From: Podarcis gaigeae
Lineage: Eukaryota
Assembly (NCBI GenBank): GCA_964106915.2
Contig: OZ066916.1
Direction: 5' to 3' (one strand)
DNA length: 64,000 nt
The position numbers and the translations under genes were made by a program. Shown here in pieces: positions 6,683 through 63,215 of this stretch. The stretch's first letter is position 1; the number at the start of each line of letters is the position of its first letter. The notes beneath the pieces are model-generated. The model made no database searches. It was not told the origin of the DNA and was given only the letters and a program-made list of their open reading frames with translations.

Positions 6683-7042
6683 GGTAAAGGTAAAGGTAAA
6701 GGGACCCCTGACCATTAGGTCCAGTCGTGGCTGACTCTGGGGTTGCGGTGCTCATCTCACTTTATTGGCCGAGGGAGCCGGCGTACAGCTTCCGGGTCAT
6801 GCGGCCAGCATGGCTAAGCTGCTTCTGGCAAACCAGAGCAGCACACGGAAACGCTGTTTACCTTCCCACCGGAGTGGTACCTATTTATCTAATTGCACTT
6901 TGACATGCTTTCAAACTGCTAGGTTGGCAGGAGTAGGGACGAAGCAACAGGAGCTCACCCTATCGCGGGGATTCGAACTGCCAACCTTCTGATCAGCAAG
7001 CCCTAGGCTCTGTGGATTAGACCACAGCACCACCCGCTTCCC
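6683..7042 (-). mobile_element. Sauria SINE, full length
   Basis: (AAAGGT)n tail, body and tRNA-like head; 13-bp TSD AAGGAAATGGTAA (6670-6682, 7043-7055). Confidence 0.93.
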
Positions 7043-7773: not shown

Positions 7774-8105
7774 GGTGCCAGGGTGGCACTGTGGGTTAAA
7801 CCGCAGAGCCTAGGGCTTGCCGATCAGAAGGTCGGCGGTTCAAATCCCCACGACGGGGTGAGCTCCAGTTGCTCGGTCCCTGCTCCTGCCAACCTAGCAC
7901 TTCGAAAGCACATCAAATGTGCAAGTAGATAAATAGGTACCGCTCCTGCGGGAAGGTAAACGGCGTTTCCATGCGCTGCTCTGGTTCGCCAGAAACGGCT
8001 TAGTCATGCTGGACACATGACCCAGAAGCTGTACGCTGGCTCCCTTGGCCAATAAAGTGAGATGAGCGCCGCAACCCCAGAGTTGGCCACGACTGGACCT
8101 TTACC
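7774..8105 (+). mobile_element. Sauria SINE with a small 3' deletion
   Basis: gggtggcactgtgggttaaacc...ggttcaaatccc...gactggacctttacc; 12-bp TSD AAATATCTTATT (7762-7773, 8106-8117). Confidence 0.93.
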
Positions 8106-18574: not shown

Positions 18575-18910
18575 AAAGGTAAAGGTAAAGGTACCCCTGC
18601 CCGTACGGGCCAGTCTTGCCAGACTCTGGGGTTGTGCGCCCAGCTCACTCAAGAGGCCAGGGGCCAGCGCTGTCCGAAGACACTTCCGGGTCACGTGGCC
18701 AGCGTGACATCGCTGCTCTGGCGAGCCAGAGCTGCACACGGAAATGCCATTTACCTTCCCGCTAGAAAGCGGTCCCTATTTATCTACTTGCACCCGAGGG
18801 TGCTTTCGAACTGCTAGGTTGGCAGGCGCTGGGACCGAGCAACGGGAGCGCAGCCCGCTGCGGGGATTCGAACCGCCAACCTTTCGATCGGCAAGCCCTA
18901 GGCGCTGAGG
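18575..18910 (-). mobile_element. Sauria SINE, divergent subfamily, 5'-truncated
   Basis: aaaggtaaaggtaaaggtacccctg tail; body collinear with the other copies but with many differences; first ~25 nt of the head are missing. Confidence 0.88.
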
Positions 18911-26536: not shown

Positions 26537-26668
26537 CCTGCTCGCGGAACCTACCTACCTACCTACCTACGGACGGACCGAGCGACCTTCCCCTCTTTCC
26601 CCTGGGCGCGCGCTCCCTCCCCCGTCCTCCCCGGGCGGGAGAGAGAGGCTCCTGCGTTGCCTCTCCCA

Positions 26669-26846
26669 ATGGGCAGTTTGCTGAGCGGGGTCAGCTTCAA
26701 GGAGCCCACCACGGTGGAGGACTGCGACTCTACCTGGGAGACGGACTCCGAGCCCGAGCTCCAGGACTCCGGAGGGGAAGAAGGGACGCCGCTCGAGGGG
26801 CTGGGGGGCGGAGAAGAAGGCGGCGGCGGCGACCCAGCTGAGGACG

Positions 26847-26879
<33 letters not shown>

Positions 26880-27067
26880 GGGAACCGCTCCCTGCGGCAA
26901 GCTGCCGGCCGGAAGACGCCGAGCCCAGAGAAGGGGTTGCTGAGGAGCCTGAAGAAGAGGAGCTCGAGGAAGACGAGGACGACGAGGAAGAGGAGGAGGA
27001 GGAAGAGGAAGGCGAGGATCAAGAGGGAGGGAGGCACGACGAAGCGGAGGCCCCCAGCACCGAGCAG
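26669..27067 (+). CDS. OGFRL1: OGFRL1 coding exon 1 (133 codons; acidic low-complexity N-terminus with polyQ/polyE)
   Basis: ATG at 26669 (MGSLLSGVSFKEPTTVEDCDSTW); donor CAG|GTAACT at 27067/27068; phase 0. Confidence 0.93.
26849..26878 (+). repeat. Pure (CAG)10 coding repeat (polyQ) in OGFRL1 exon 1
   Basis: Ten uninterrupted CAG codons in frame. Confidence 0.95.
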
Positions 27068-28531: not shown

Positions 28532-28870
28532 GGTAAAGGGACCCCTGACCATTAGGTCCAGTCGTAGCCGACTCTGGGGTTGTAGCGCTCATCTCGCTTT
28601 ATTGGCCGAAGGAGCTGGCCTACAGTTTTCGGGTCATGTGACCAGCATGACTAAGCCACTTCTGGCGAACCAGAGCAGCGCACGGAAACGCCGTTTACCT
28701 TCCTGCCGGAGCGGTACCTATTTATCTACTTGCACTTTGATGTGATTTCAAACTGCTAGGTTGGCAGGAGCAGGGACTGAGCAACAGGAGCTCACCCCCT
28801 TGCAGGGATTCGAACAGCCGACCTTCTGATTGGCAAGCCCAAGAGGCTCAGTGGTTTAACCCACAGCGCC
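28532..28870 (-). mobile_element. Sauria SINE in OGFRL1 intron 1, antisense to the gene
   Basis: ggtaaagggacccctgaccattagg ... tttaacccacagcgcc; collinear with 6683-7042. Confidence 0.92.
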
Positions 28871-33550: not shown

Positions 33551-34963
33551 GTAAGTAATCCATGGGCATTGTCACAGTGTTTGTTTCATTCTTTTATATC
33601 CAAGGCCTTTGTAAACCAAAAGATCAAAACCAATTCAGTGTCAGGTTTGGCTTCAGCAGTTTTGTAGCCCTATCCTATGCATGTTTACTTGGAAATAAGG
33701 CATACTGAGATCAATGAGGCACTCACCCAGGAAAGTGTGCATGTGATAGCAGTTTAAGGCATGGGATTTCATTTTAGTCAACAGAAGCTCATCTTTGTGA
33801 AGTTCAAATATACTACCCCTAACCTGCTTGTGAGCTGCTGCAGCCTGATTTTGGTTTTCTGCTCCAACCTCAAATGGTGCAAAATTTCCACTACTTTTGG
33901 TTTACTCCAAGAAAAGCAGATCTCTTGTGGGTTTCCTATTAATCTGGATCATGATGCCTTGAACTTTCAAATTTATTAAGCATAACTTGAAAAGCTCTAG
34001 AAAAATTATTAGTGGCATCACCATTGTGCTCTTCAAGTGAAACAAACCCCCCAGGTTATGTTATATATGTTGGTGCCAGATTAATAAAACCAGTTTTTCT
34101 TTGGTGCATTTGAACTTTGGTGTTATTGTGTTGCACTATTGTGAACAGACTATGTATTTTTTAGAAATCTTGGCTACTGGGTTAAGTGGATCATGTCCAG
34201 TGGGCATTGGTTTTACTTAAGATTTAGCAATTTAGAGAATATTGCCATTCCCCACCACCAACACATTTGTTTGGGGAAGTAGTTTTAAGTAAAGTCACAA
34301 GGTTGGTGGGGAGTAGGCTGAGCCACACTACTTATAGCATGGTTGGCTGTTGTGATAGGGAGAGCAAATTGCTCTTGGCAGACAGATAATTTATATTAAT
34401 AGCATTGTGGCACTGAGCATAGGTCAAAAAACATAGACTGGCCTCAGCAGCTAGTCCAAACAGTTCCTTGCCATGGCACTTACCAACTTCCTCTGAGGGA
34501 ATGGGCAGGATGTTCTAACATTATGCTGAACTTGAAATAAAGAACTGCAGAGGTGAGCACCTCTCCTTTTCCAGAGTTGAGGAGGTCAGGCATTTATTCC
34601 CATTGTGCTAAACCTCAGCATCAAGGACAGCTCCGACCTTTCTCATTACAGAGCTCTCACACTCCTCCAGCAAAGGAAGGAAGAGCAAAGGGTTGCCTTG
34701 TTGATGTGCTCATGTCAAAGCAAAATATGTACTCCCCAGTAACAAGCTGGCAAGTGCATTTGTAGATCCTTGGCCCTATAGAGTGCCTGGTGTCTTCTCT
34801 GGGGTTAGAAGGACAATGTTAATATTTTCAAATAATTAGAGACAGTATATTTGTCTGCAAAATACATTTTTGTGTTCTATGCCACAGCATTTTTAGATGC
34901 ATGATATTATATACAGATTGTTGTATTTGATGTTTGGATTTGCTCATGCATTTGTATTTATAG

Positions 34964-35042
34964 GTGTTTATATTGAAGAAGTCCTAAATAAGTGGAAAGG
35001 AGATTATGAAAAGTTGGAACACAATCACACTTACATACAGTG
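34964..35042 (+). CDS. OGFRL1: OGFRL1 coding exon 4 (VYIEEVLNKWKGDYEKLEHNHTYIQ-W)
   Basis: Acceptor tttatag|GT; the donor CAGTG|gttggt is required to keep the frame into exon 5; 79 nt, phase 1-2. Confidence 0.93.
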
Positions 35043-35143
35043 GTTGGTAATTGTTTTCTTTTCATTGCTTTTATAATACATTTATATAAATTTGTCTAAA
35101 CTCGCTTAATCCGCAACAAATCTGTGTGTCTTTAATAATATAG

Positions 35144-35210
35144 GCTTTTTCCATTAAGAGAGCAAGGACTGAATTTCTATGCAAAGGAATTAACAACATA
35201 TGAAATTGAG
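35144..35210 (+). CDS. OGFRL1: OGFRL1 coding exon 5 (LFPLREQGLNFYAKELTTYEIE)
   Basis: Acceptor atatag|G, donor GAG|gtaaag; 67 nt; flanked by short introns of 101 and 112 nt. Confidence 0.95.
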
Positions 35211-35322
35211 GTAAAGCTAATAATTCACAATATAACTTTGCTGCTTGATGATTAAGAGTAAAATTATTCTATATCTCTAATTTTGTTGTTGTTTGTACCT
35301 TCTTTTTGAAAACGTGTTGCAG

Positions 35323-35468
35323 GAATTCAAAAAAACAAAAGAAGCAATTAGAAGATTCCTGTTGGCTTACAAAATGATGCTGGAGTTTTTTGGAATAAAA
35401 TTAATTGATAAAACCGGAAATGTTGCACGAGCATCTAATTGGCAAGAACGATTCCAGCACTTAAATGA
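35323..35468 (+). CDS. OGFRL1: OGFRL1 coding exon 6 (EFKKTKEAIRRFLLAYKMMLEFFGIKLIDKTGNVARASNWQERFQHLN-E)
   Basis: Acceptor gttgcag|GAA, donor GA|gtaagt; 146 nt, phase 0-2. Confidence 0.95.
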
Positions 35469-36540
35469 GTAAGTGATGTCTTGTAGTAGAGAAAATCCTC
35501 TATTTGCACTACTCCCCATTTTATTTATTTGCAACATTTTATATCCTGCTCTTTGTTGCCAAGCTGTTCCAGGGTGGGTTGCAGCAATAAAAAATACATC
35601 ATAAATGCACCATAAAATCTTAACATCATTCAGTCTTCTAACAAGAATGACAATATACAATTCCAATCTCTTTGCAAGAGAAACCAGGTGGTTCTGAATT
35701 ACATCCACCTCCACCGCAAAAGGCTGGGAGAAAGAGGAAGGCACATGTGGCAATCAAGATTCTCCAACCCCCAGATGTCAATATAAGGGCATAACATTTG
35801 AACAGTACTTGCATAAAAGTGTGGTTGATTTCCAGGTTGTAAGTGCACATATGTGGTGCATTGAGATTTTATGTGATCAGCTGGTCGGAAGGAGGTATGT
35901 GGTTTTCTCCACTATACATAGGGATGGGATTCGGTTCCATACTGCCTTTGTTCCTGAGGAGCATGAATTCTTTGCCAAGAGTTTTTGCATCTGTGTGTCT
36001 ATCAGCAACTATTTCTGTTTGCGTATGTCTTTAGATGTGTCAGTGAATACTGATTTCATTTATTTACTTATTTCATAAATTTTATACACCACTTAATTGT
36101 AAAAAAACATCAACCCCAACTAATAGCTGTAGTCATCAGGTGGCACCCAAGTAGTATCTCTACTATCATAGGCATCATATCTCTGAATACTAGTTGCTGG
36201 AAATTGCAGATGAGCAGAATGCTGTTGTGCTTGCAGGCTTCCCATGGTCCACTGGCCTGATCTAGCATATTCGTCTTCCTTTTTATGTTCTTATGTAGTA
36301 TGAAAAGGCAATTCTAGTTTAGCTGGCATTGAAAGACCTTTCACTTGGTAGTTGCCATTCCATCTGAATTGTCTCTGAAAGATCCACATTGGTTGGGTAA
36401 TCCTTTTTGTCAAGGTGTCAGGTACTGATTATTTTTCTATCCTCTTCCCCCCTCCCCCCATCCCCCGGCAAAGAAAAATAATCCCCCGCTTTGCTTCCTG
36501 TCAATTTTGAATTCAGATGATTTTTTTCCCCTTTTCACAG

Positions 36541-37297
36541 GTCCCAACATAACTACTTGAGGATCACACGTATTCTGAAGAGTCTTGGCGAACTTGGGTA
36601 CGAGAGTTTCAAACCTCCTCTTGTAAAGTTCATTCTTCACGAAGCTCTTGTGGAAGACACCATCTCCAACATTAAGCAAAGCGCTTTGGAATATTTTGTA
36701 TATACTATTAGAGACCGGAGAGAGAGGAGGAAACTCCTGCGGTTTGCCCAGCAGCACTACACACCCTCTGACCACTTCATATGGGGGCCGCCGAGGAAGC
36801 AGAAGTTGGAAGGAAGCAAGCCGAGTAAGAAGCTGGCATCGCCGGTTTCCCTCCGCAGCGGTTACGTTTCTAAACATAAAAGTGGGAGAGAATGCAAGAA
36901 TGTGCCCGTGGTTTGTAACTCAAGCGGCAAAGCAACCAATGAAAAAAGGGCAGAACATGCTAAAAAGGATGACGATTGTGACCGGAGCAGGAAACACGCC
37001 AGCCCTGAGGTTGTTAAGCAAAGCATTGGTGAAAAGAATAGCAACGCTGATTGTCAGAACTCCATACTGGAAGAAACTGCTAATCCTTCGAACCAGAAGG
37101 AGAACGTTTGCCATCTTAAAAAACATAAAGGCAAAAATGATGAAAACCTTAATCAAGACTGCAGAAATGCAGAACCTGTAGAAAAAGATTGCCATGACTG
37201 TAAAAGCGATTCAACTAATATATCAACAGATCTGCAAGACAGTGTAGTTAAGGATAAAAACCCAGGAGGATCGAACAAAGAGGAGACTCGAGCATAG
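36541..37297 (+). CDS. OGFRL1: OGFRL1 last coding exon (end of OGFr_N domain plus K/D/E/N/S-rich disordered tail)
   Basis: Strong acceptor ttttttccccttttcacag|G; SQHNYLRITRILKSLGELGYESFK...FIWGPP; same frame as track ORF 36557..37297; TAG stop. Confidence 0.96.
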
Positions 37298-37769
37298 ACT
37301 AAAGTGTCTCAGTCAACTTGTATGAAATTGGACAAGGAAAAGAAGATCTTGACGCTGGGCCCAGTGCTTGGCCACCAAGGGGTTATGCTCTCTTTCATTT
37401 GACTCTTGTTAACTGTTTGCACTTTTCAGAACTGTGTATTAAGCTTAAAAACAACAGCAGAATCCTCAAGCCCGAGAACTCCTATGCTAAGCTTTGCTCT
37501 CTTTGTGGAAACTATTGATTTCAGTTATCCTCCCCCCCATCTTATTATAATATACATTTTTTAATCTTAGTTATTTGGCAGCTAGGGTTCCAAGGACGTC
37601 CAAGGAATGTTTTCTTAATGATAATCACTTGGTATGCTAAACTTTTCAATGTTTGCCATTGCTTGAATAACAAAAGCAGGTTCATTTAGGATGTACATTC
37701 AGCATCACCACCATCTGGAGACCCAGGTTCAAGTCCTACCTCTCCCATGTCTCTCACATTGACAGCAAC

Positions 37770-38109
37770 CGTGTAGCGCTGTGAGTTAAACCACAGAGCC
37801 TAGGGCTTGCCGATAAGAAGGTTGGTGGTTCGAATCCCCGCGACGGGGTGAGCTCCCGTTGCTCGGTCCCTGCTCCTGCCAACCTAGTTCGAAAGCACGT
37901 CAAAGTGCAAGTAGATAAATAGGTACCGCTCCGGCGGGAAGGTAAACAGTGTTTCCGTGCGCTGCTCTGGTTCGCCATAAGTGGCTTAGTCATGCTGGCC
38001 ACATGACCCAGAAGCTGTATGCCGGCTCCCTCGGCCAATAAAGCGAGATGAGTGCCGCAACCCCAGAGTCGGTCTTGACTGGACCTAATGGGTCCCTTTA
38101 CCTTTACCT
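37770..38109 (+). mobile_element. Sauria SINE in the OGFRL1 3' UTR, sense
   Basis: gcgctgtgagttaaaccacagagcc...ggttcgaatccc...ggtccctttacctttacc. Confidence 0.92.
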
Positions 38110-41100
38110 ATGTTCTCTCGGCCTCAGTTCCCCCACTGATGGCGTATACTTCTCCAGTGTTGCTGCTGAGAAGAAGAAAAAAAGCTAGCAAATCACCTTT
38201 TACATTAAAAACAACTATTAGTAAGATTTGCACACCAGCACCCCTTGTTCCAAAATACTCATATACAGTTTGTGACGGCATCTTCTCTTGGTGCCTCTTT
38301 TCCCTTCTTCCCTCCCATGCAACTGCACAAGTTTAAAAATCAGGACACAGCATTTTGCCAATGTTTATTTTGCCTGAGAGACCCACTTCTGCTGATAAAG
38401 GAGTATAAGGTCAGAAAAGGCTTAAGCACTGCCGAGACAAAGTTAATGACTGCCCACTCAGCTTCTAAAGCAGAAGCAATATTTTGAGATTGACCTTTTC
38501 TTCCTTGAAATTCTGGTGGGATTTGAAAAGTCCTCTGTGCAAAAGGGGAGATAGCAGCTTTCTTTTCTTTGTTCTTCCCCAAGTTCCCCCCAAAAATCAT
38601 GCCTACATCCTCACTTCTAGCTACTGGGGGTATGCAGGGAAGACCCAGGGAAGAAAAAATTCTTTATCGTGCACCTGATCCAGGTAACTCTTTACCCGCT
38701 TCTATGCACATGGTTGCTTATTCCCCCTCCCCAGAAAACTTAAGATTTCTTCCATCGGACGTGAGGGAGAACTCTGAAGCAGGATGGATTAAGAAGACTC
38801 TGCCAGAACCAAGGAATATGATTCTTCAACACACACAGCCTGTTCTAGTAAGGGTTAGTCCATACAAAAGACCAAACTTCTCTTTCACCCCAGATAGCTT
38901 GGACATCTTTTACTAAATAGTAAAGAGTATTTTATAGAATGATAATTGAAGGTGTCTGCTAAAATTGTTATCTGTGCAGCTTCTCAACCTCCTCAGTGGG
39001 TACCGAAAGACTGTTTTGAAGGAGGGGCTCATAATTGTAAGGGCTTCATTTCCTCTTTTGTTATCTTAAACCAACCAGAGCCTTGATGAATCCAGAGTGA
39101 AAAGTGTGCTCACAAATAGCTTTCCAGTGCATTTAAAGCAAACCTTTCCACATCTCAGTCCAGTTAGAAAGACATTTGAGGACAGAGGGCTTTTGTTTTT
39201 TAGATTTATATACTACCCTTCAAATGCCTTTTCAATAAGAAAAGTAGCTTCTTCAGAGCTTTTATGCCTCTGTGCTGGGAGACACTGGCACAACCTTCCC
39301 CATACTGGTTCCTTCCAGATGTTTGGGACAGCTACTATTAGCATCAGCACAGATATGCTGACTAGGACTGATGTGAGTTGTAGTTCAAAACAGCTGAATG
39401 GCACCAGCTTCGGAAAGGCTGCGCTAGCATATCTTTGCTGGGCTCCCCCCTCCAAATGTGTGTTTATACAGAAACAAAATATGAGCAGTACCTTTTGGTT
39501 TTAGACCTCCCTCTTACCTGGATTAATCTTACAAATGTTTCAGTGATGGCTGATCAGTGGTACTACTGCAGGCTTGGAAGTGGGGATGGGACTTGTACTG
39601 GAATGTTGGTGCCGATGCCAGATTTTCTTTCAAAGCTGGTAGCTTCACATCCACAAAGAGTACAGCTATGAGTTTATTCCGGTTTATCCTGTAAAAAGTA
39701 TGTATAAAATTCCAGTTTTGTCCTTGGATTTACTGTTCAGCAGATGCCTCCTGGCATTTGGAACGAGGGTGAGACTGGCACCAATTCTGTGATGTTGGAG
39801 ACTGTTATTTGAGGAGGCATTCATGAAATGTGTACCACACCAATCACCCTTTCTGCAACCCCCTTTGAAATTAAAAACACCTTCTTACTTAAATGTTCTT
39901 AGTGTTCCTTCATGATGCAGGATTCTCTATGTATAAAATAGCATCCCTCTTATCCATCCTTCAGGTTAATCCTGCGTGAGGTAGTGACTCACAAGAGAAC
40001 AAGTGAGCCCATGATAGAGATACCAGTGCACAGAAGATATTATTTAATAAAGCAGATATATAAGGTTTAGCCAGGAAGTGATGCAATCCTATATTCAACC
40101 TGTGCCAAGACCATTTCATCCGGTTGCTTGTTTGTTTCCAGACTTTGTTTACCTATTTGTTTCCAAGATTTTTTTAAAATCTTTCAAGTTCTATGTGGCC
40201 ATATACTTGTTACCTTCTCCCGTTTTGTACACACAAACCAGGCAAGATTAGATGAGTGCAACTGGCACTGCTCATGGTTCTAGCACTGCGACAGATGGGA
40301 TCGGGCCCTTTTATAATGATAGGTGTAAACTTTCGGACCTCTCTGAGTATGTTAGGAAATTGCCATTTTTCATTGGGTGTCTGTTTTTTTCTTCAAAACG
40401 AAACAGGGTAAAACCATTTTTCACCAGTGAGCGTTTGGATGGTTTTATTTTATTGGCTGGGTCTGGAGGTTGGGGTGGGGGTTGGGAGTGCAAACTGTTT
40501 TCGATTGATATTTAAGTGGCTTTATTATTCTGTTGCTTGTTTGCTGTAAACTGCTTTGATATTATAGAGAAGCAATCTACAAATGTTCTAAATGAAACAT
40601 GCAAGAGAACCGTGTTTTGTTTATATCAAATTTGCATTAATTGGCTTGAGAGCAAAGAATTCTACACACCAAGAGGTGTAGTAGTACAACAGGGGGGCTG
40701 GTTCGCCTGTTGTTGCAGTGCCAACAGCAAGATCCAGCTGTGCTGTATAAAAACAGGAAGTGCTTCTGCGTATCCATTATGTGGGGCAGCCCTTGCACCT
40801 CAGCCCTTGAGGTCCTACTTTGATGGGCCATTGGACCCTTGTGGGAGGAGTCAGAGATCGGGAAACTCAGCAAAGACTAGTACTCTACAAGGTGCAAGGG
40901 CTGCTGCATACCTAGCCACAAAAAATAACTAAAGAGTCTACAAATGAGATTCAAAGAGCCTTGTGGACCCTCCCTGACCCCACCAAATTGCACTGGGGCT
41001 TCTCAGTTTCTCCCTGGTGACTATGTGCACACCCAAGTTTCAGTTTCTTAGTTTTTGTTTTTGTCTGATGCTTCAGTATATAAATCCTCCCCTGGACCCT

Positions 41101-41308
41101 TCAGTATGTAATGAATTACCTTAGGACAAAGTGTGTTTATCTTCACAACTTTTCTTTAAAAAACAAAACCTTATGGTATTTGTAAGCATTATATGCTGCT
41201 GTTTTAGTAGGAAATGTGTTCTGTTCACATGGTAGAAGTAGGTGGAATGTTTTATTTATTTTTAGTCCAAGAAGTGCTTTAATTTGTAATTCTCATTTTG
41301 TGTGTGTA

Positions 41309-41314
41309 AATAAA
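41309..41314 (+). terminator. Candidate polyadenylation signal AATAAA
   Basis: tgtgtaAATAAAactgtttcaca with upstream TGTA/U-rich elements and downstream ttcttcttc...ttttttttt. Confidence 0.55.
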
Positions 41315-42699
41315 ACTGTTTCACAACTTTAGGAATGCTGCTGCTTCTTCTTCTTCTATAGTTTTTTTTTTACTCCTGCATCACAGAGCACACCAAAATC
41401 GTCAAACATACTCAATACATTTGCAACATTTTGGGCAGTGTTCCTAATCACATAAGAGAGAAAGCCCCATTGAATACAGGGGTAGCAGTGTAAATTGGAG
41501 TACAGATACAAAAGAGGCTGCTGTTAATAGTAAGGAATGCAGGCTGCAGGAAGTAACTGCATGTACCATCCTTAGCTAGCTCAAAGACTCTTAATTTTGC
41601 AAACTAGTAAAATCCAATGTTGTTCATGTTGAACATAATTTAAAACGGCTATGTAATTAATATTCTTGCTTGTTTTTCTAATTGAATTTTTACTTTTCTG
41701 TACTTTGATTTGTTGGGCTAGTAGTGTGTTAATAACTTATGCAGTACATTCTTTTCTCTTGAGTTCTTCCTTACGTATTAATGAACCTGACCTTCCCAAT
41801 TTAAAAGTGTAATATAATATTGTGTAATAATACATGGCATGATGTCAATGTGACCAGGCCTTCTTTCTGTTTGTATAAACAAAGTGACACCAGAGTTAAT
41901 TAAGGGGTGTGTTTTTTTTGCACATTGAGGATAGAGAAGTCAATTGCATCTGATATTTTGCATAGCTTCCTTACACTCCAAATCATTATTCCAAATGGAT
42001 TTATAAGGGGTTTTATTACACAGCTTTCCAGACTTTGGTTTGATGTCAGTTCCACAGGAGGGTGGTTGAAACTGCACAAAGCATGAAGATACCTTTCTGT
42101 ACATGCACATTCTAGTTTTGTATTCGACACTGCATCTCTAATTTTCAAAGGATAGAGAAACTGCAGTATAATTTGCAGAGACAGACTTCCTTCCCTGATC
42201 TTGAATTCAACAGTGGGTCAGTATGTGAAGTTCACAACTTTTTAAAACAACAACACATTTTGCATAATTAGATGCACATATACCCAGTACAGCATTTAAC
42301 AAACAAGGCAGCTTGCAATATCTAATTACCCGAGAGAGGAATCTGTATTTGCAGTTTGCAGAAATTTATATACGGACACTTACCGGACTTAGGATTTCAT
42401 TTCCATGACTGCTGTGATGGAAGTGTCTATAACCTTAAGGGTTCCAGCTATCGGGTATTCCAGCCTTCATGCACTGGGCAGGCTTCTCTTCCACAGACAT
42501 GACACATAGCATGGATAGCCTTGTTCTCTCCATGCAGTGCTAATTGAATGGAGTAATGATGACTGACTGCAGTAGGTAACTTCATGTCTGACAACCAACC
42601 TTCATACTACTCATCTTCAGGACATATCTCATATTATCACCTACTTAACAACCCATATATATTCAGGGCAAAATAAACACCAATGCCAGTGTTATCTGT

Positions 42700-43320
42700 C
42701 TTAGGTGGTAGTCCCTAAAGTTGAGGAAGCCAACACCAATCAACCACACCAGACCCAAACCCAGACCCTCTCCACAGATGAATTACTGACACCATCCAGT
42801 AGCCAATCCATGGTGGCACCTCCGGATGCTGCACCCCCCTGCAATCCCTACACAGATCTGGCTGACACAAGCCACAAAACCACAGCTCGCCCCTATACAC
42901 GAAGCCAAGCCAAAGCACAACTAAGTGCAATACAGCCATCTTCTCAGGAAAACTCTTCACAAAGTTCAAGAGGTCAAGACACAAAGACTTTAGCAACTAA
43001 TCCACACCTAATGACCCACCTAAGTGGTACTCAGGATATCACTCAAGAAATCACTCAAGGTATCTCTCAAGTAATTAAGGAACAAAAGAAGAAAAGGCAC
43101 ACTAGCCTGGGAACTTCCTCTCTGCCCAGAACATTGGAGGCTAGACACCACACCCCCTCTACAGTATTTATAGGAACTCAAACATTGAGATCCCGCTCTG
43201 TTCCAGTAACAAGAAGCCGAAAGCACCAGCCTGAAGATGACGAGTGAGACCTCGTCGAAACGTCGCCTAGACACCCCAACTTTTACACGGGAAGACACCC
43301 GAGGACACCAAAACCTGCAT
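42700..43320 (+). mobile_element. Penelope-like element 3' end / pseudo-LTR followed by (AT)n
   Basis: A/C-rich low-complexity open frame (42705-43247), TATA-like tatttatagg, CTGAAGA-stem-GAAACGTC hammerhead motif, short tail, then (AT)n at 43319-43344. The left boundary is approximate. Confidence 0.7.
43226..43270 (+). ncRNA. Minimal type-I hammerhead ribozyme motif (PLE-associated)
   Basis: CTGAAGA (43231-37), extra T, stem II GACGAG/CTCGTC with loop TGAGAC, GAAA (43257-60), CGTC; predicted cleavage after C43264; stem I short and imperfect. Confidence 0.65.
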
Positions 43321-45498
43321 ATATATATATATATATATATATATTGTGCGGTTAGATAAATCTATGTCAAGTATGTATGTGTGTTTCTGTATGTATCTTT
43401 GAAAAAAAATGAAGAAGTTAGCTTAATGCTCTGGGAACTAAATTATTTCTGAACAGTTTTGAATAAGCATAGTAGAAACCATTATTTTGTGTTTCATAAC
43501 TCAGAGCGCATCTAAAGAAAAAGAAATACAAGAAAGCACTAGGAAATTAATTTTAATTACATGGAAGACAGCGGCCCTGCTCTTGCACAGCAGCAAACCG
43601 TGCACGTGCTGATTGTGGATGGGGATCACTCTTCCCCTGCCAAACAAATGATTGGCAGCTATCAGAACTGGTGGCACCAATACACACTTCCATTTGTGCC
43701 ATACCTAGAAAGCATGGGTCCAAGGGGTCTTCTGCTTGAGCCACGATTTGTACGCATGGGTCTGAGCGTTTTTCACCTTGCCCTGCTCCTTTCCAAGGGG
43801 AAATCCGCCCTTTAGAGGCAGATCAGAACAAATGGCAGTTGAGGGGAAAATGAATTTCTATCTTCTCTAATTGAACGCTAAAGAGTGTTTTCCCTGAAAG
43901 CAGCGGAACAAAAGGAAGTGTGGATAAACCCTGAATAGAGAAGCACATGGGTAGGCAGCCTGCATCATGTACAAACCATTAGATAGTCTATTTGGTAGTA
44001 TGTATGTGGTGCAGGTTTGTTGCACATGTTCTATAGTCTATTGGATGAGGAAATACCACCACCACCTGGGAACTTGCAGCAGCCTCCTGCATATGTGTGG
44101 TGGGCAGACGTGGGCAAAGAAATCTGTTCCTGCACACTAATCACTGAGAAACATTTAATCACAAGCCAGTATTTCTATAGTTGCATTTTTAGCATCATGT
44201 ACACTGAGTGTGGTGAAAGGGCAGTGGGACAGTCAAGAGTTTTTACCCCACAAGGCCTCCGTAGGAAAAGCACCCCAACAAACCCTTTCACACAAGGAAT
44301 ACTCAAAGAGGGCAGGTATTCTGAAAATTCAGCAACAGATGGGTAGATAAGCCTTGGAAAGAACTAAAGTGTGTTTTTCTTAATCAAATTTTTCTTTAAA
44401 CATATTTAGTGTGGGGGGACATTATTTGCAATTTGAAAACATCAGTGTCATGTCAGATGGGTGGGCTGTGCTGAACTTGGTGTTCTTTTGCAATATGAAA
44501 TGGAAGGATTCTGGGCACACTTGTTAGAACCATTTACCATATGCACGTGGTGGAAGTCGTAACCAGTTTCTGGATTTGAAAGGTATTGTAAAAGATATGT
44601 TTCTATGATTGCATGGAAGTCTTCTGCCAAATGACATAAATGAATTATTACAAAGCAATGGTTTATGAAGTAAAATATGAAAAACTTTTCAAGTGGCAAC
44701 TCTAGTGTGCACCAAGGTTTCTAATAAAGCTTGTTTTGCATTAACTATGTTTACAGCAATGCAGTAGATGTTCAAGCAATGCAGATGTGTAGTACTGGAC
44801 TTCTGCAGTTCATTTCCAAAGCTGCTTTTGAGGAAATGGGACTAAACTGGCAGAATAAATACAGCTGGGATAAACGATTGAGCTTATTCTTTAATAAGAG
44901 GAGAAGAGTTTGAAGAAATGTAATAAAAAGACATAACTTGGAATCTACAATTGGGATGTTGGCTGTACTTTTTGCAGCTGATCAGAGAAGCAAGTGGGGT
45001 TTTCCTTGTTCCTCTTGGGAGAACATTATAGTAAAACCACTGGAATTTCCTACTCAACGTGCTAAAATTAGCCAGCAGTCCTCTCTTCAGCTCTTATACT
45101 GAATATTCCCTTGACCAGCTGGAATGCCAAAGTGTGAAGAATGGGCGAGGGACGGGACTGCCTGCTACAATAGATATATGCATTTGCTTTTTACTCAGAA
45201 GTGTCAAGTGTTTTTAAACTGCATTCTTTTTGACATGCCACAGCTATTTTCAACTGTATTAGCAAAGTAAGTGAATTCTGGTAAATTCTGGCTGCACAAA
45301 GGTTTGTTTGTTTTTAATCCTTTTCACCTGCAACAATTAACATTCCCCTCACCTTGGCTAGAGTGCAAATCTCAGAAGTCCCCTATTTTGCTGCATGCTA
45401 CTGTTAGGTGAACATTTCATCTCCCCTCTTCTTTTAAAGCAGACCTTTTAAGTGACTGAATGGTCTGAGTTTTTCCCAACTTTTTCCCCTGCACGAGT

Positions 45499-45499
45499 A

Positions 45500-45556
<57 letters not shown>
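45499..45556. repeat. (ATT)n microsatellite
   Basis: Direct reading. Confidence 0.95.
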
Positions 45557-45557
<1 letters not shown>

Positions 45558-46193
45558 CTGTATGACTGACAAAACTTGTGATGTTGAGAAACTCCCAGCA
45601 TGGAGGTACAGAAGTAGAAAGCTCTTTACTTCCTATGTAAATAATAATAGTAGGGACTTTCTGGGTAAGACCAAATATCAGGTGTAGCGCAAGCATGTTT
45701 ATTCCATTGCCTTCAACTGTGTTTACTTCCTAGTAAGTGTGCAGAGGATGTTGCCCTAATCTAGCATTCTGTTGACAACAAGATGCCTCTGGGGAAAATC
45801 ACAGGTGAGACATGAAGGCCATAGCCATCTACTGGTGTTCAGCTGTAGCCTCTGCTTCCAGTTTCTAATGCCTTGCTCTCTGCTGAATGGTGTGAAATTA
45901 AACTCAGTTGAAGAATGTGGATGATCTAAGCTTGAATCAGTGATTTCCTCTTAGTAGGCAATGAAAGACATATATGCCTGGGTGCTTGGTTCAGCACCTA
46001 ACCTATCCGCTCGTGTCAAAGTCCTTCAGCCTGTGACAGTTCTGTAAGTTAAAGAGAGAGCTTGCTCAGTACCAAGATAATAAAGGGTGACAGGTAAAGG
46101 TCTCCTTTTTTCTTTTTCTGCATAACGGAAAAACCTTTATGCCAAAAAATCTTAATATCTGCCGGTTTTAGAAACCGTCAGTAACCCAACATC

Positions 46194-46692
46194 TGTCAGA
46201 GATCAGGCTGGGGAGTACTACTCTGGTGAGGAGTGGTGGGCGTCCCCCTCTCCCCCTGATCCTGGGGCTCCACAGGAGCAAGAGAGTAGTATTGACCTGG
46301 AACAATGGTTTGCTGAGGGACACTGTTCAGAGGACAGGAGTTGGGCAGAATTGGGAGGTGAACAACAAGAAGAGGCAGAACGGGAGGAGAGAGAGTTAAC
46401 CGATTCTCCCTCACTGGAAGGTATACAGCCTCTTAGTCCCAGGGCTAGGAGATTGGATAAGGTAACTTCACAGAAGGCTAATTGGTTGAGAGATGGGGTA
46501 AATAGGAGACGAAGATGGAAGTGACTAGAGGGAAGTGGGAGAAACTTAACTGGGAGCACCTGCACTGCAAGAATGGTCTTTTGTTCTTTTGCTGCGTTCA
46601 TTAAACATTTCTGTTGCTGGTAAGAGACTGCTTTATCTTGCACTGCTTATCTATGGTCAAAGTGAGAAGGAAGCTGGCCCTGAAGCCTGACG
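46194..46692 (+). mobile_element. Probable older solo LTR
   Basis: TGTCAG ... CTGACG termini (CA mutated), purine-rich body like 20227-20660, ATTAAA at ~46600; TSD degenerate (acatc/atacc). Confidence 0.5.
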
Positions 46693-47034
46693 ATACCTCT
46701 TCGAAAAGGCTGTTTATAACATTCTAACTTTGCAGCTGATGCTAACATGAAACATGCAATTTATCCATTGAGTAGATACACTTAGAAGAAATGTTTTCCT
46801 CGTAGCCTCTGCCTCACCTCGTAAATATCTACTATTTTACTGCCATTAATAACATCCTAGAACGCAAGAGGGACCAACCAGATGAAGTACAGAAGCTACA
46901 AAAGACACAGAAAATCTGATATTAAAAATGTTTTCGTAGAAGGAAGTCCCATTTGGACCTAAGGAGCTTGCTTCCATGTTAAGTTTGCTCAGAACTGCAG
47001 CTTTACTTGTTCTTACACCCGATATATAAATCCC

Positions 47035-47206
47035 GTGGCTCAGTGGCAGAGCAGCTGCTTTGCACGCACAAGGTCCTGGGTTCAGTTCCCCAGCATATCC
47101 AGACCAGGGATGGGAATGTACCCTACCTTGGAGAGCCATAGCCAGTCAATATAGGCATGACTGAGCTAGATAGACCAATGTCTGATTTAGTGTAAGGGAG
47201 CTTTCC
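47035..47206 (+). mobile_element. tRNA-derived squamate SINE (Squam3-like)
   Basis: A box gtggctcagtgg, B box gggttcagttcc, tail ctgagctagatagaccaatg.ctgat..agtgtaagg.agct. Confidence 0.75.
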
Positions 47207-47464
47207 ACACAGGATCAGCAGAGCACCTTATCTGCAGTGAGATGTGGGCACCACATTCTTTTTAATGGCTGCAACATCACCATCCTACAAACTACTGGTA
47301 CTCCATGAGGATGCTTAGCCTGAGATCTGCCCCGTTTCTCACAGACAACCTTTTCAAGTAGTTGAGAGAGCTATAAGCAATAGTATAGGTCTCAAACTGC
47401 CCAGCCTTTATATAAGGCTTCTTCTGTGCTTATATATACAGTAGACAGTAGACAGACAGTAGAC

Positions 47465-47467
<3 letters not shown>

Positions 47468-47501
<34 letters not shown>
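47468..47501. repeat. (AC)n microsatellite preceded by (agacagt)n
   Basis: Direct reading. Confidence 0.9.
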
Positions 47502-47503
<2 letters not shown>

Positions 47504-48420
47504 CTCTCAACTGGTTTATAGCTAAAACCACATTACAAATATACAATTAATGCAAGAGTAAAAATGCAATAAAATATTGTTAATAAGATAATATGTCCTA
47601 GAGAGGTTGACTTCGTTCCCTTAGACTGGAAAGCCTCAAAGGCGGGTCTGTCTGTTCCTCCTACACATACAATGGTGTTGCAGGGTGATTGCTAATTTCC
47701 TCATATTACTTTCTTCCCCATCCACCCACAAAGCAAGGCCCATTGAATGTTGTGAGATATATACTCAAACCTAAGAATACTTGCTCAAAATATCATTATT
47801 GCCTCTCCTCTACCCTCAATGTGTGGAAAAATGTCCTTATACTGATGTATACCATCCCACTTAATTCAGGAACTCTTTTTAAGTGTGCTTACTAGGTAGA
47901 ATCACACACACAGCACTTTTGGGTTGTTTCATCCTTTTAAAGCTAAAATGCTCAATCTGTTGTCTTTGATGACTGCCAGGTTTTAGTAAATATTTTCCTC
48001 TACTTAGCATTTGACAAGTATACTTGGGAACATTCTAAATATATTTGAAGTCCGGCACAACTTCTGTTTGTTAAAATGATTAAAAGCTGCAGACAAATGT
48101 AGGAATGGCTCCCATCAGCACTTCCAGAACAATTCTGCCCACTTCAAAACAGACGGTGGAGATGAATGTTTTAATCAGCAGAATTTCACTCAAAACACAA
48201 TATAATTAGGGAAAGCAGGTTTTGGCCGACATATTGCAAGGTGTCCAATCAATGCATCAGTGAGAGAGTGCTCTCTCCCTACTCCAGTTTCCATGTTTCT
48301 CTTTCCCACCTGATCCTAACCCTCACACACTGTTTACCTTTTTCCGCCTGCCTGAGCTCCCACTTCCTTCTACTGGACCTTATCCCAAACATTGTTTCCT
48401 TCTCCTTTATACTGTCCTCC

Positions 48421-62436: not shown

Positions 62437-62783
62437 AGGTGGCGTTGTGGGTTAAACCACAGAGCCTAGGACTTGCCGATCAGAAGGTTGGCGGTTTGAA
62501 TCCCCGCGACAGGGTGAGCTCCTGTTGCTCGGTCCCAGCTCCTGCCAACTTAGCAGTTCGAAAGCACGTCAAAGTGCAAGTAGATAAATAGGTACCGCTC
62601 CTGCGGGAAGATAAACAGCGTTTCCATGTGCTGCTCTGGTTCACCAGAAGCGGCTTAGTCATGCTGGCCACATGACCCGGAAGCTGTACATCGGCTCCCT
62701 CGGCCAATAAAGCGAGATGAGCGCCGCAACCCCAGAGTCAGTCACGACTGGATCTAATGGTCAACGGTCCCTTTACCTTTACC
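62437..62783 (+). mobile_element. Sauria SINE nested in a palindromic hAT MITE
   Basis: ggtggcgttgtgggttaaacc ... ggtccctttacctttacc; the host MITE arm resumes ctggaggaccataggttagccacccc. Confidence 0.92.
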
Positions 62784-63215
62784 TGGAGGACCATAGGTTA
62801 GCCACCCCCGTGTGACTTATTTAAAAATAAGAGTGAGTAGCTCTTTAAAATTCTTACATATATTTTCAGCTTGTGGCCAAGATGACAATCTACCCATCCA
62901 GACTTGAGGGCTGAACATAGATCTGAGGCTGTAGGGTTATTGCTGTGTTTACACAATACATTGGCCTTGATGCCGAGTATCCCCCACTGTCTATCAAAGA
63001 AAGTCACATTGCAAATTTTCCTTTCCCAAAGTCACCTATATGAAGCTCTAGGCCTTACATCCATTTTTAATACCTGGCTCCTTACCTACGTCTGCGAAAT
63101 TCCAAGTTCAGCGTATAGTTCAAAACTTCACACTTCCATGGGCAAGTCAGATTTGTGTTATCAACTCACGGAATCTTAAACAAGAGACCTTTTTAAGTTT
63201 GTGAAAGAACTGCAT

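Follow-up and report, generated by a model that had tools for sequence, protein, structure and literature searches.

A hammerhead ribozyme motif lies in the sense orientation behind the last exons of a protein-coding gene, and the question raised by this locus is whether the motif serves that gene. The window, meaning the whole 64-kb stretch of DNA that was analysed, contains the last exons of an OGFr_N-family gene (OGFRL1-type) at 34960..37297 on the + strand, as seen from PF04664 matches and reading frames; the matching exons span 34960-36802 and the stop is at 37297. The gene is upstream of the element described below, in the same sense and outside it. From its N-terminus the gene is presumably OGFRL1 and not OGFR, and a longer OGFr_N paralog on contig C15 also supports this naming. 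The candidate poly(A) signal, AATAAA at 41309..41314 (+), stands 1.9 kb before the motif and 1.4 kb before the element copy that carries it, and further AATAAA sequences are found at 40046 and 42672. An earlier note on this DNA had placed the motif in sense about 1.9 kb past a candidate poly(A) signal, and this placement was borne out. In our reading, the motif is very probably the pLTR hammerhead of a young, truncated Penelope/Poseidon copy, which probably inserted into (AT)n behind OGFRL1 by chance and is likely inert there.

Several other features were seen around the gene. Its first coding exon (26642-27030) contains (CAG)10 as well as a long segment of acidic residues. A repeat of about 350 bp, which we take to be SINE-like from its resemblance to a squamate SINE, occurs in six copies (37759-38111, 6688-7039, 7783-8100, 18577-18910, 28532-28869, and 62439-62784), and the one at 37759-38111 sits in the 3' UTR region of the gene. 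A tRNA-like head at 47035-47094 (+), scoring 27.9 bits and thus just under the Rfam cut-off, is probably part of a tRNA-derived SINE. A weak match to the UnaL2 LINE 3' element at 44598-44640 (+; 20.2 bits, E 7.5) is possibly an old L2 end.

The hammerhead motif and the element that carries it

The minimal type I hammerhead motif at 43229..43266 (+) was confirmed as real at the sequence level by its letters, its folds, and its exact copies elsewhere. All on the + strand, it consists of the core C3-A9 (CUGAAGA, 43231-43237), one extra U after A9 (43238), a stem II of six perfect pairs (43239-43244 with 43251-43256) around a 6-nt loop II (43245-43250), G12-A14 (GAA, 43257-43259), a loopless stem III made of the palindrome ACGU (43260-43263), and C17 at 43264. 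The complete core, the 6-bp stem II, the loopless palindromic stem III, and the predicted cut at 43264/43265 were thus found as the earlier note had described them. Its weak stem I of GC/GC plus imperfect pairs held only in part, as there are two Watson-Crick GC pairs (43229-30 with 43265-66) and the following five positions are unpaired. The extra nucleotide after A9 is also present, but it had been called a tolerated variant and is really part of the element's start codon, as described below.

Stem II is present in both the MFE and the centroid fold of the motif, and the folding energy is no lower than that of shuffled sequences (z scores of -0.89, 0.16, and -0.14). A search with Rfam hammerhead descriptors had been asked for, and no model matched near the motif; there were zero hammerhead matches in 38000-48000 or in 43150-43320 at E<=10, and no Rfam family reached its gathering threshold across the whole 64-kb window. 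Stable stems I and III and an Rfam score, the marks of a canonical monomeric hammerhead, are missing, with stem I at 2 bp and stem III loopless. The marks of a minimal hammerhead, namely the core CUGANGA...GAA...UH, the G10.1-C11.1 pair, and the extra base after A9, are all present. A loose core pattern gave 2 matches in the window vs 0.73 expected, which taken alone is within chance. The motif is considered non-chance because the 35-mer at 43230-43264 has 6,639 exact occurrences in the genome (3,342 + 3,297), compared to 0 for the reversed control. This amounts to one per 228 kb in the 1.51-Gb genome. A search for stem II covariation with three relaxed patterns found 2, 11, and 2 other matches, mostly mutants of the same family or at control level.

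Lunse et al. are said to have described cleavage of minimal hammerheads as dimers. In nearest-neighbour energies, which ignore the core, a dimer held by the ACGU helix scores -19.2 kcal/mol vs -23.2 kcal/mol for two monomers, and the MFE dimer (-29.4 kcal/mol) pairs elsewhere than at the ACGU palindrome. Metazoan Penelope-like hammerheads, in the cited sections of PMC4209133, are like this one of type I, without loop 3 and palindromic at 15.2-16.2, and they have an extra nucleotide between 9 and 10.1, a G10.1-C11.1 pair, and a long stem II. As here, most are single motifs in truncated copies or opposite-strand pairs. The 2-bp stem I is like that of Drosophila virilis and shorter than the typical 4-5 bp in the same sections. 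One nearly invariant family with thousands of identical copies dominates here, as in the recently invaded D. virilis, whereas elsewhere there are many variable ones (PMC4209133, in part).

The motif belongs to a 5'-truncated retroelement copy at 42729..43320 (+), recognized by identity to other copies, which comprises the last 592 nt of the unit and starts just past the endonuclease domain. These 592 nt show 100% identity to many copies elsewhere, and also to L036, a natural tandem copy. Sequence for reverse transcriptase (RT) or endonuclease is absent from the window copy, as is an inverted partner; no other element piece and no second motif were found in the 64-kb window. What remains of the element ORF is the low-complexity C-terminal tail at 42729..43247 (+), within an ORF at 42705-43247 whose frame also closes the 991-aa ORF of L036. 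The TGA stop (43245-43247, +) forms the first half of loop II. No Pfam match was obtained in three frames over the window copy.

Longer copies carry a single ORF. In copy L031, RVT_1 was matched at aa 335-514 (E 1.8e-15) and GIY-YIG at aa 682-722 (E 9e-4, below the curated cut-off), and Atlas matches at 0.96 were to RT/HTH_animal/GIY-YIG clusters. Cys 711 and 714 lie between GIY and YIG and are followed by a His-x5-His pair, and a CX1-5CxxC linker had no match anywhere in the element ORF. Two Cys between GIY and YIG and the lack of a CX2-5CxxC linker are given as Penelope/Poseidon marks in the cited part of PMC8557442. The element therefore appears to be a Penelope/Poseidon-type retroelement, its clade being assigned by motifs and not by a tree. 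The earlier note's view of the motif as a minimal, dimer-type Penelope-like hammerhead agrees with such an RT plus GIY-YIG family.

Genome copies were found with exact patterns; a DNA search with 43100-43320 skips common words. Comparison of 35 of the copies L001-L050 with the window copy showed no difference in 50 of 66 aligned stretches and a divergence of 0.07% (20 differences in 30,535 bases). Judged from the copies themselves, the family is a very recent burst. Point changes within the motif were seen at C17 (8), C15.2 (5), C11.1 (12), G1.1 (up to 18), and U16.1 (1); these changes sit at CpG sites and fit neutral decay. A test for core conservation among the copies is powerless because the family is too young at 0.07%. 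In six places (L053, L054, L057, L059, and L060), a variant was observed that lacks three core bases, reads CUGAUGA, and has a shorter stem II.

Overlapping start codon, stop codon, and ribozyme core

In the tandem L036, two hammerheads stand 2,965 nt apart. A9, the extra U, and G10.1 together make an ATG (43237..43239, +, in the window copy). In tandems, this ATG is the start codon for the downstream unit, and in L036 it begins a reading frame of 991 aa whose stop is the TGA within loop II of the following hammerhead. Since this frame spans the 2,965-nt unit from ATG to TGA, the extra U is part of the start codon and the unit is wholly coding. The overlap of start codon, stop codon, and ribozyme core was thus shown, along with coding throughout the unit.

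The 3' ends of the copies are of two kinds, a short end at +84 and a tailed end 28-29 nt farther at +112/113. Among 127 simple inverted pairs, 118 combined one short and one tailed end, 7 had two tails, 1 had two short ends, and 1 was of another kind. A direct tandem was seen in L036 and an inverted partner in L031. AT runs adjoin every copy end that was inspected, with ATATATAT or AAATATAT coming next after 239 of the 259 tail ends. In the window copy, the 3' end is the short one (+84), which lacks the 28-29-nt tail, and the copy abuts the (AT)13 microsatellite at 43319..43344, its insertion target.

A TATA-like box (TATTTATA) at 43165..43172 (+) is the likely pLTR promoter, and 23-36 nt behind it, at 43195..43208 (+), the 5' ends of genomic copies cluster. 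In these 14 nt, 34 of 359 distinct pieces begin (2.4 per nt), compared to 10 in the upstream 45 nt (0.22 per nt). Another 20 of the 359 pieces begin in 43209-43228, and ten pieces start at 43232; this profile comes from loci that were not randomly chosen, with selected positions left out. The cluster at 43195-43208 is likely where pLTR transcription begins, 30-40 nt ahead of the ATG. Promoters in pLTRs are known (PMC6765202, a review passage).

The closest comparison is with Poseidon of Anolis carolinensis (PAc), as described in the cited parts of PMC11167929. PAc also has a single ORF with RT plus GIY-YIG at the C-terminal end, its ORF likewise starts at the stem II base, and its cut lies 26 bp after the start codon, compared to the predicted +28 here. 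Both insert at AT-rich targets with two types of 3' ends that differ by a "tail", and the PAc RT starts at 111-118 agree with the tailed end at about +112 here. The RT-start region of PAc (Fig. S1 of that paper) is by eye unlike that of the present family, suggesting a distinct family. The family here also differs from PAc by the short end at +84 and by strict (TA)n targets in the copies seen. The ORF here runs through the whole repeat into the next hammerhead, which is not stated for PAc in the parts of PMC11167929 that are cited.

The insertion site and the neighbouring gene

The locus was then compared to DNA contigs from four runs: X1 and X3, two individuals of the source species (species A); X4, one relative (species B); and X6 (species D). 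The left junction at 42729..42730 consists of 2 nt common to the flank and the element. Left-flank contigs of X1, X3, and X4 match the window as far as the second base of the element (42730), beyond which they continue for 2,754 (X1), 1,941 (X3), and 368 (X4) letters that are absent from 41900-44100. This was the case in all three runs that cover the left side; X6 gives no cover there. Right-flank contigs of X1, X4, and X6 begin within the AT repeat. At 42787 and 43144, other letters stand in place of the window copy's alleles for most of X4's summed depth and for all of X6's.

The left junction looks private to the assembled haplotype. We read the insertion as younger than the species split, and the contigs make a strong though not final case that it is not fixed. 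It was likely joined via the two shared bases with the loss of at least 2.75 kb of target DNA. No contig spans the insertion site, and contigs show presence and not absence. A later deletion into an older and longer copy, a rearrangement, or an assembly fault could possibly have produced the same junction, and with no contig across the site these are indistinguishable from an insertion with deletion. If the insertion reading is right, the locus suggests that such insertions can bring kilobase-scale loss of target DNA.

To the right of the insertion, the assembly differs from both X1 and X3 at 43868, 43960, 44003, and 44052, and at three of the four positions also from both other species; these differences are either private alleles or assembly errors. 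In each of the four runs, a second, lower-copy repeat of inverted structure (43676-43971) showed raised depth together with numerous loose ends and joints.

Host-domesticated amniote hammerheads, found for example in introns or 3' UTRs, are old single-copy motifs that fold as monomers and are conserved between species. The motif is like them in that its core lies near a protein-coding gene on the sense strand. It differs in being young, multi-copy, and apparently unfixed, and in having no stem III of the domesticated kind. A domesticated ribozyme is expected to be fixed, orthologous, and conserved; here the junction is absent from the X1, X3, and X4 contigs and the alleles are those of species A.

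The earlier note had suggested, as a pure inference, that the motif, if active, could cut nascent read-through RNA of OGFRL1 (at 43264/43265) and help RNA polymerase II termination, which would mean that the copy has been put to use by the gene. The sense orientation, the distance of 1.9 kb after the AATAAA, and the intact core fit this proposal. The intact core reflects mere youth of a family with thousands of near-identical copies. With 3,320 sense copies, the chance that one falls within 2 kb downstream of a gene is 0.44%, so that about 87 of an assumed 20,000 genes should have such a copy by chance. The copy is also a lone monomer without a partner motif in the window, and a single minimal hammerhead showed no cleavage (PMC4209133, in part). 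In the cited parts of PMC11167929, the anole hammerhead does not cut without the element protein, and the anole relative depends on ORF nucleotides 1-172, a likely protein-binding region that is mostly lost here as the copy ends at +84. Lastly, the left junction is missing from the contigs of other individuals in three runs. We therefore regard a role in OGFRL1 termination as extremely improbable.

Another explanation is that the copy is inert as a ribozyme and acts as a young regulatory variant, whereby its promoter, or the loss of at least 2.75 kb, alters transcription downstream of OGFRL1 in carriers. The TATA-like box and the 5'-end cluster lie inside the copy, pLTR promoters are known (PMC6765202, in part), and the other alleles have extra DNA at the junction. 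Against this, nothing marks the lost DNA as functional, and the window is without any Rfam family at the gathering threshold. This effect is very unlikely, although somewhat less so than a role in termination. The copy could possibly also be transcribed locally or cut in trans with RNA of other copies, since it retains a likely promoter and an intact core. On balance we favor the chance insertion of a young copy, and for OGFRL1 the motif is most likely without consequence.

Junctions at the predicted cut site

Whether the family's hammerhead cuts RNA in the animal is a separate matter that concerns the family and not the locus. Across the genome, copies with a match beginning exactly at one of several chosen positions were counted, and their loci were then classed. 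All 220 matches at seven positions were inspected; mutants with a point change or indel were removed, as was the second strand of each of five symmetric junctions. Position 43265, the first base after the predicted cut, gave 46 junction loci, and the others gave 31 (43257), 27 (43260), 33 (43262), 7 (43264), 10 (43266), and 16 (43270). When only direct element-element joints were considered, 25 of 31 at 43265 had at most one shared base, compared to 12/22 at 43257, 3/15 at 43260, 3/24 at 43262, 2/5 at 43264, 2/6 at 43266, and 3/14 at 43270. For low microhomology at 43265, the Fisher test gave 1.2e-6 against the pooled controls and 0.024 against the best control.

Two additional controls start with the same three bases as the cut position. 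One, 43229, had 52 matches (at most 42 loci, with ten symmetric pairs by coordinates), of which 30 were inspected and all were junctions, 5 of 20 with low microhomology. The other, 43216, had 23 matches and 17 junctions, 4 of 16 with low microhomology. Among the nine positions, low-microhomology junctions were thus most numerous at the cut (25 vs 2-12 at the eight controls). Their distinct partners numbered 13 at 43265, which is the level of 43257 (12). Pieces with the short end were enriched at the cut, at 22 of 46 vs 24 of 93 at five controls. The total junction count at the cut is not exceptional because it is matched by the same-three-base control 43229.

The 5' ends had at first seemed sharply concentrated at the cut (49 vs 7-29), a candidate signal that was weakened by the counts of 33 at 43262, 31 at 43257, and 52 at 43229.

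Copies with blunt or 1-nt joints that begin exactly at the scissile bond, which are mostly pieces with the short end, could be germ-cell cDNAs that ran off ribozyme-cut RNA, and the second pile would then be the promoter start. We consider this reading possible but doubtful. Stalling of the reverse transcriptase, palindromic fold-back, or a secondary start site are alternative explanations for the cut-site junctions. In the cited parts of the two papers, anole RNA-seq had no RNA ends at the cut site (PMC11167929), and no in vivo evidence of minimal-hammerhead cleavage is given (PMC4209133). Our literature search, which did not extend to most subscription journals or Repbase, turned up nothing published about this family or about copies whose genomic 5' ends fall at the cut of a Penelope hammerhead. 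It could also be argued that the motif merely follows from the overlap of start and stop codons and that no RNA is ever cut by it in this family. The core letters do double as ATG and TGA, the 46 loci at the cut are matched by a control with 52 matches (at most 42 loci), and the majority of copies run across the site uncut. However, the same architecture recurs in animal Penelope-like elements with covarying stems (PMC4209133, in part), core mutants abolished cutting in the anole element (PMC11167929, in part), and low-microhomology junctions peak at the cut site here. A motif that never cuts is therefore unlikely.

By analogy with the anole relative, a sequence of events can be proposed for the family. 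RNA would start about 30 nt behind the TATA-like box in the repeat, and a dimer of the element's RT-endonuclease would nick AT-rich DNA. Reverse transcription would begin at +84 or +112, internal sites downstream of the hammerhead, on a template of mostly uncut RNA; mutants of the anole hammerhead did not impair insertion in vitro (PMC11167929, in part). Cutting by the hammerhead would require both a dimer held by the ACGU palindrome and the element protein, and the cut would strip the start codon from the downstream unit while the upstream ORF stays whole. For the window copy, reverse transcription would have set out from +84 and halted 592 nt later, and the product would have been joined to the upstream DNA through the 2 shared bases, likely with a loss of at least 2.75 kb of the target. 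The window copy would be a dead-end product with no effect on OGFRL1 termination.

If the cut-site junctions do record cleavage in germ cells, the cut would turn the RNA from a message into a template, at a place where start codon, stop codon, and ribozyme overlap. A very young family of more than 6,600 copies makes cleavage in vivo testable. As an active and almost undiverged Penelope/Poseidon burst with thousands of junctions, it also makes it feasible to locate, in DNA alone, the start at the promoter, both starts of reverse transcription, and possibly cutting by the ribozyme.

Non-LTR retrozymes, as described in the cited part of a preprint (bioRxiv 10.64898/2026.07.22.740005), resemble the present family in being hammerhead-bearing, derived from a Penelope-like pLTR, and mostly intergenic. 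They are tandem non-coding units, whereas the window copy is a truncated end piece from a coding, autonomous element whose 5' ends vary. At L243:4520-5048 (G000:C1, about 52.614 Mb), a short tandem was observed with units of 141-177 nt, each holding a hammerhead and the ORF start. From its arrangement, it appears to be a natural cis-dimer resembling a nascent retrozyme. Its first unit starts exactly at the predicted cut, and a mirror set lies 2 kb away.
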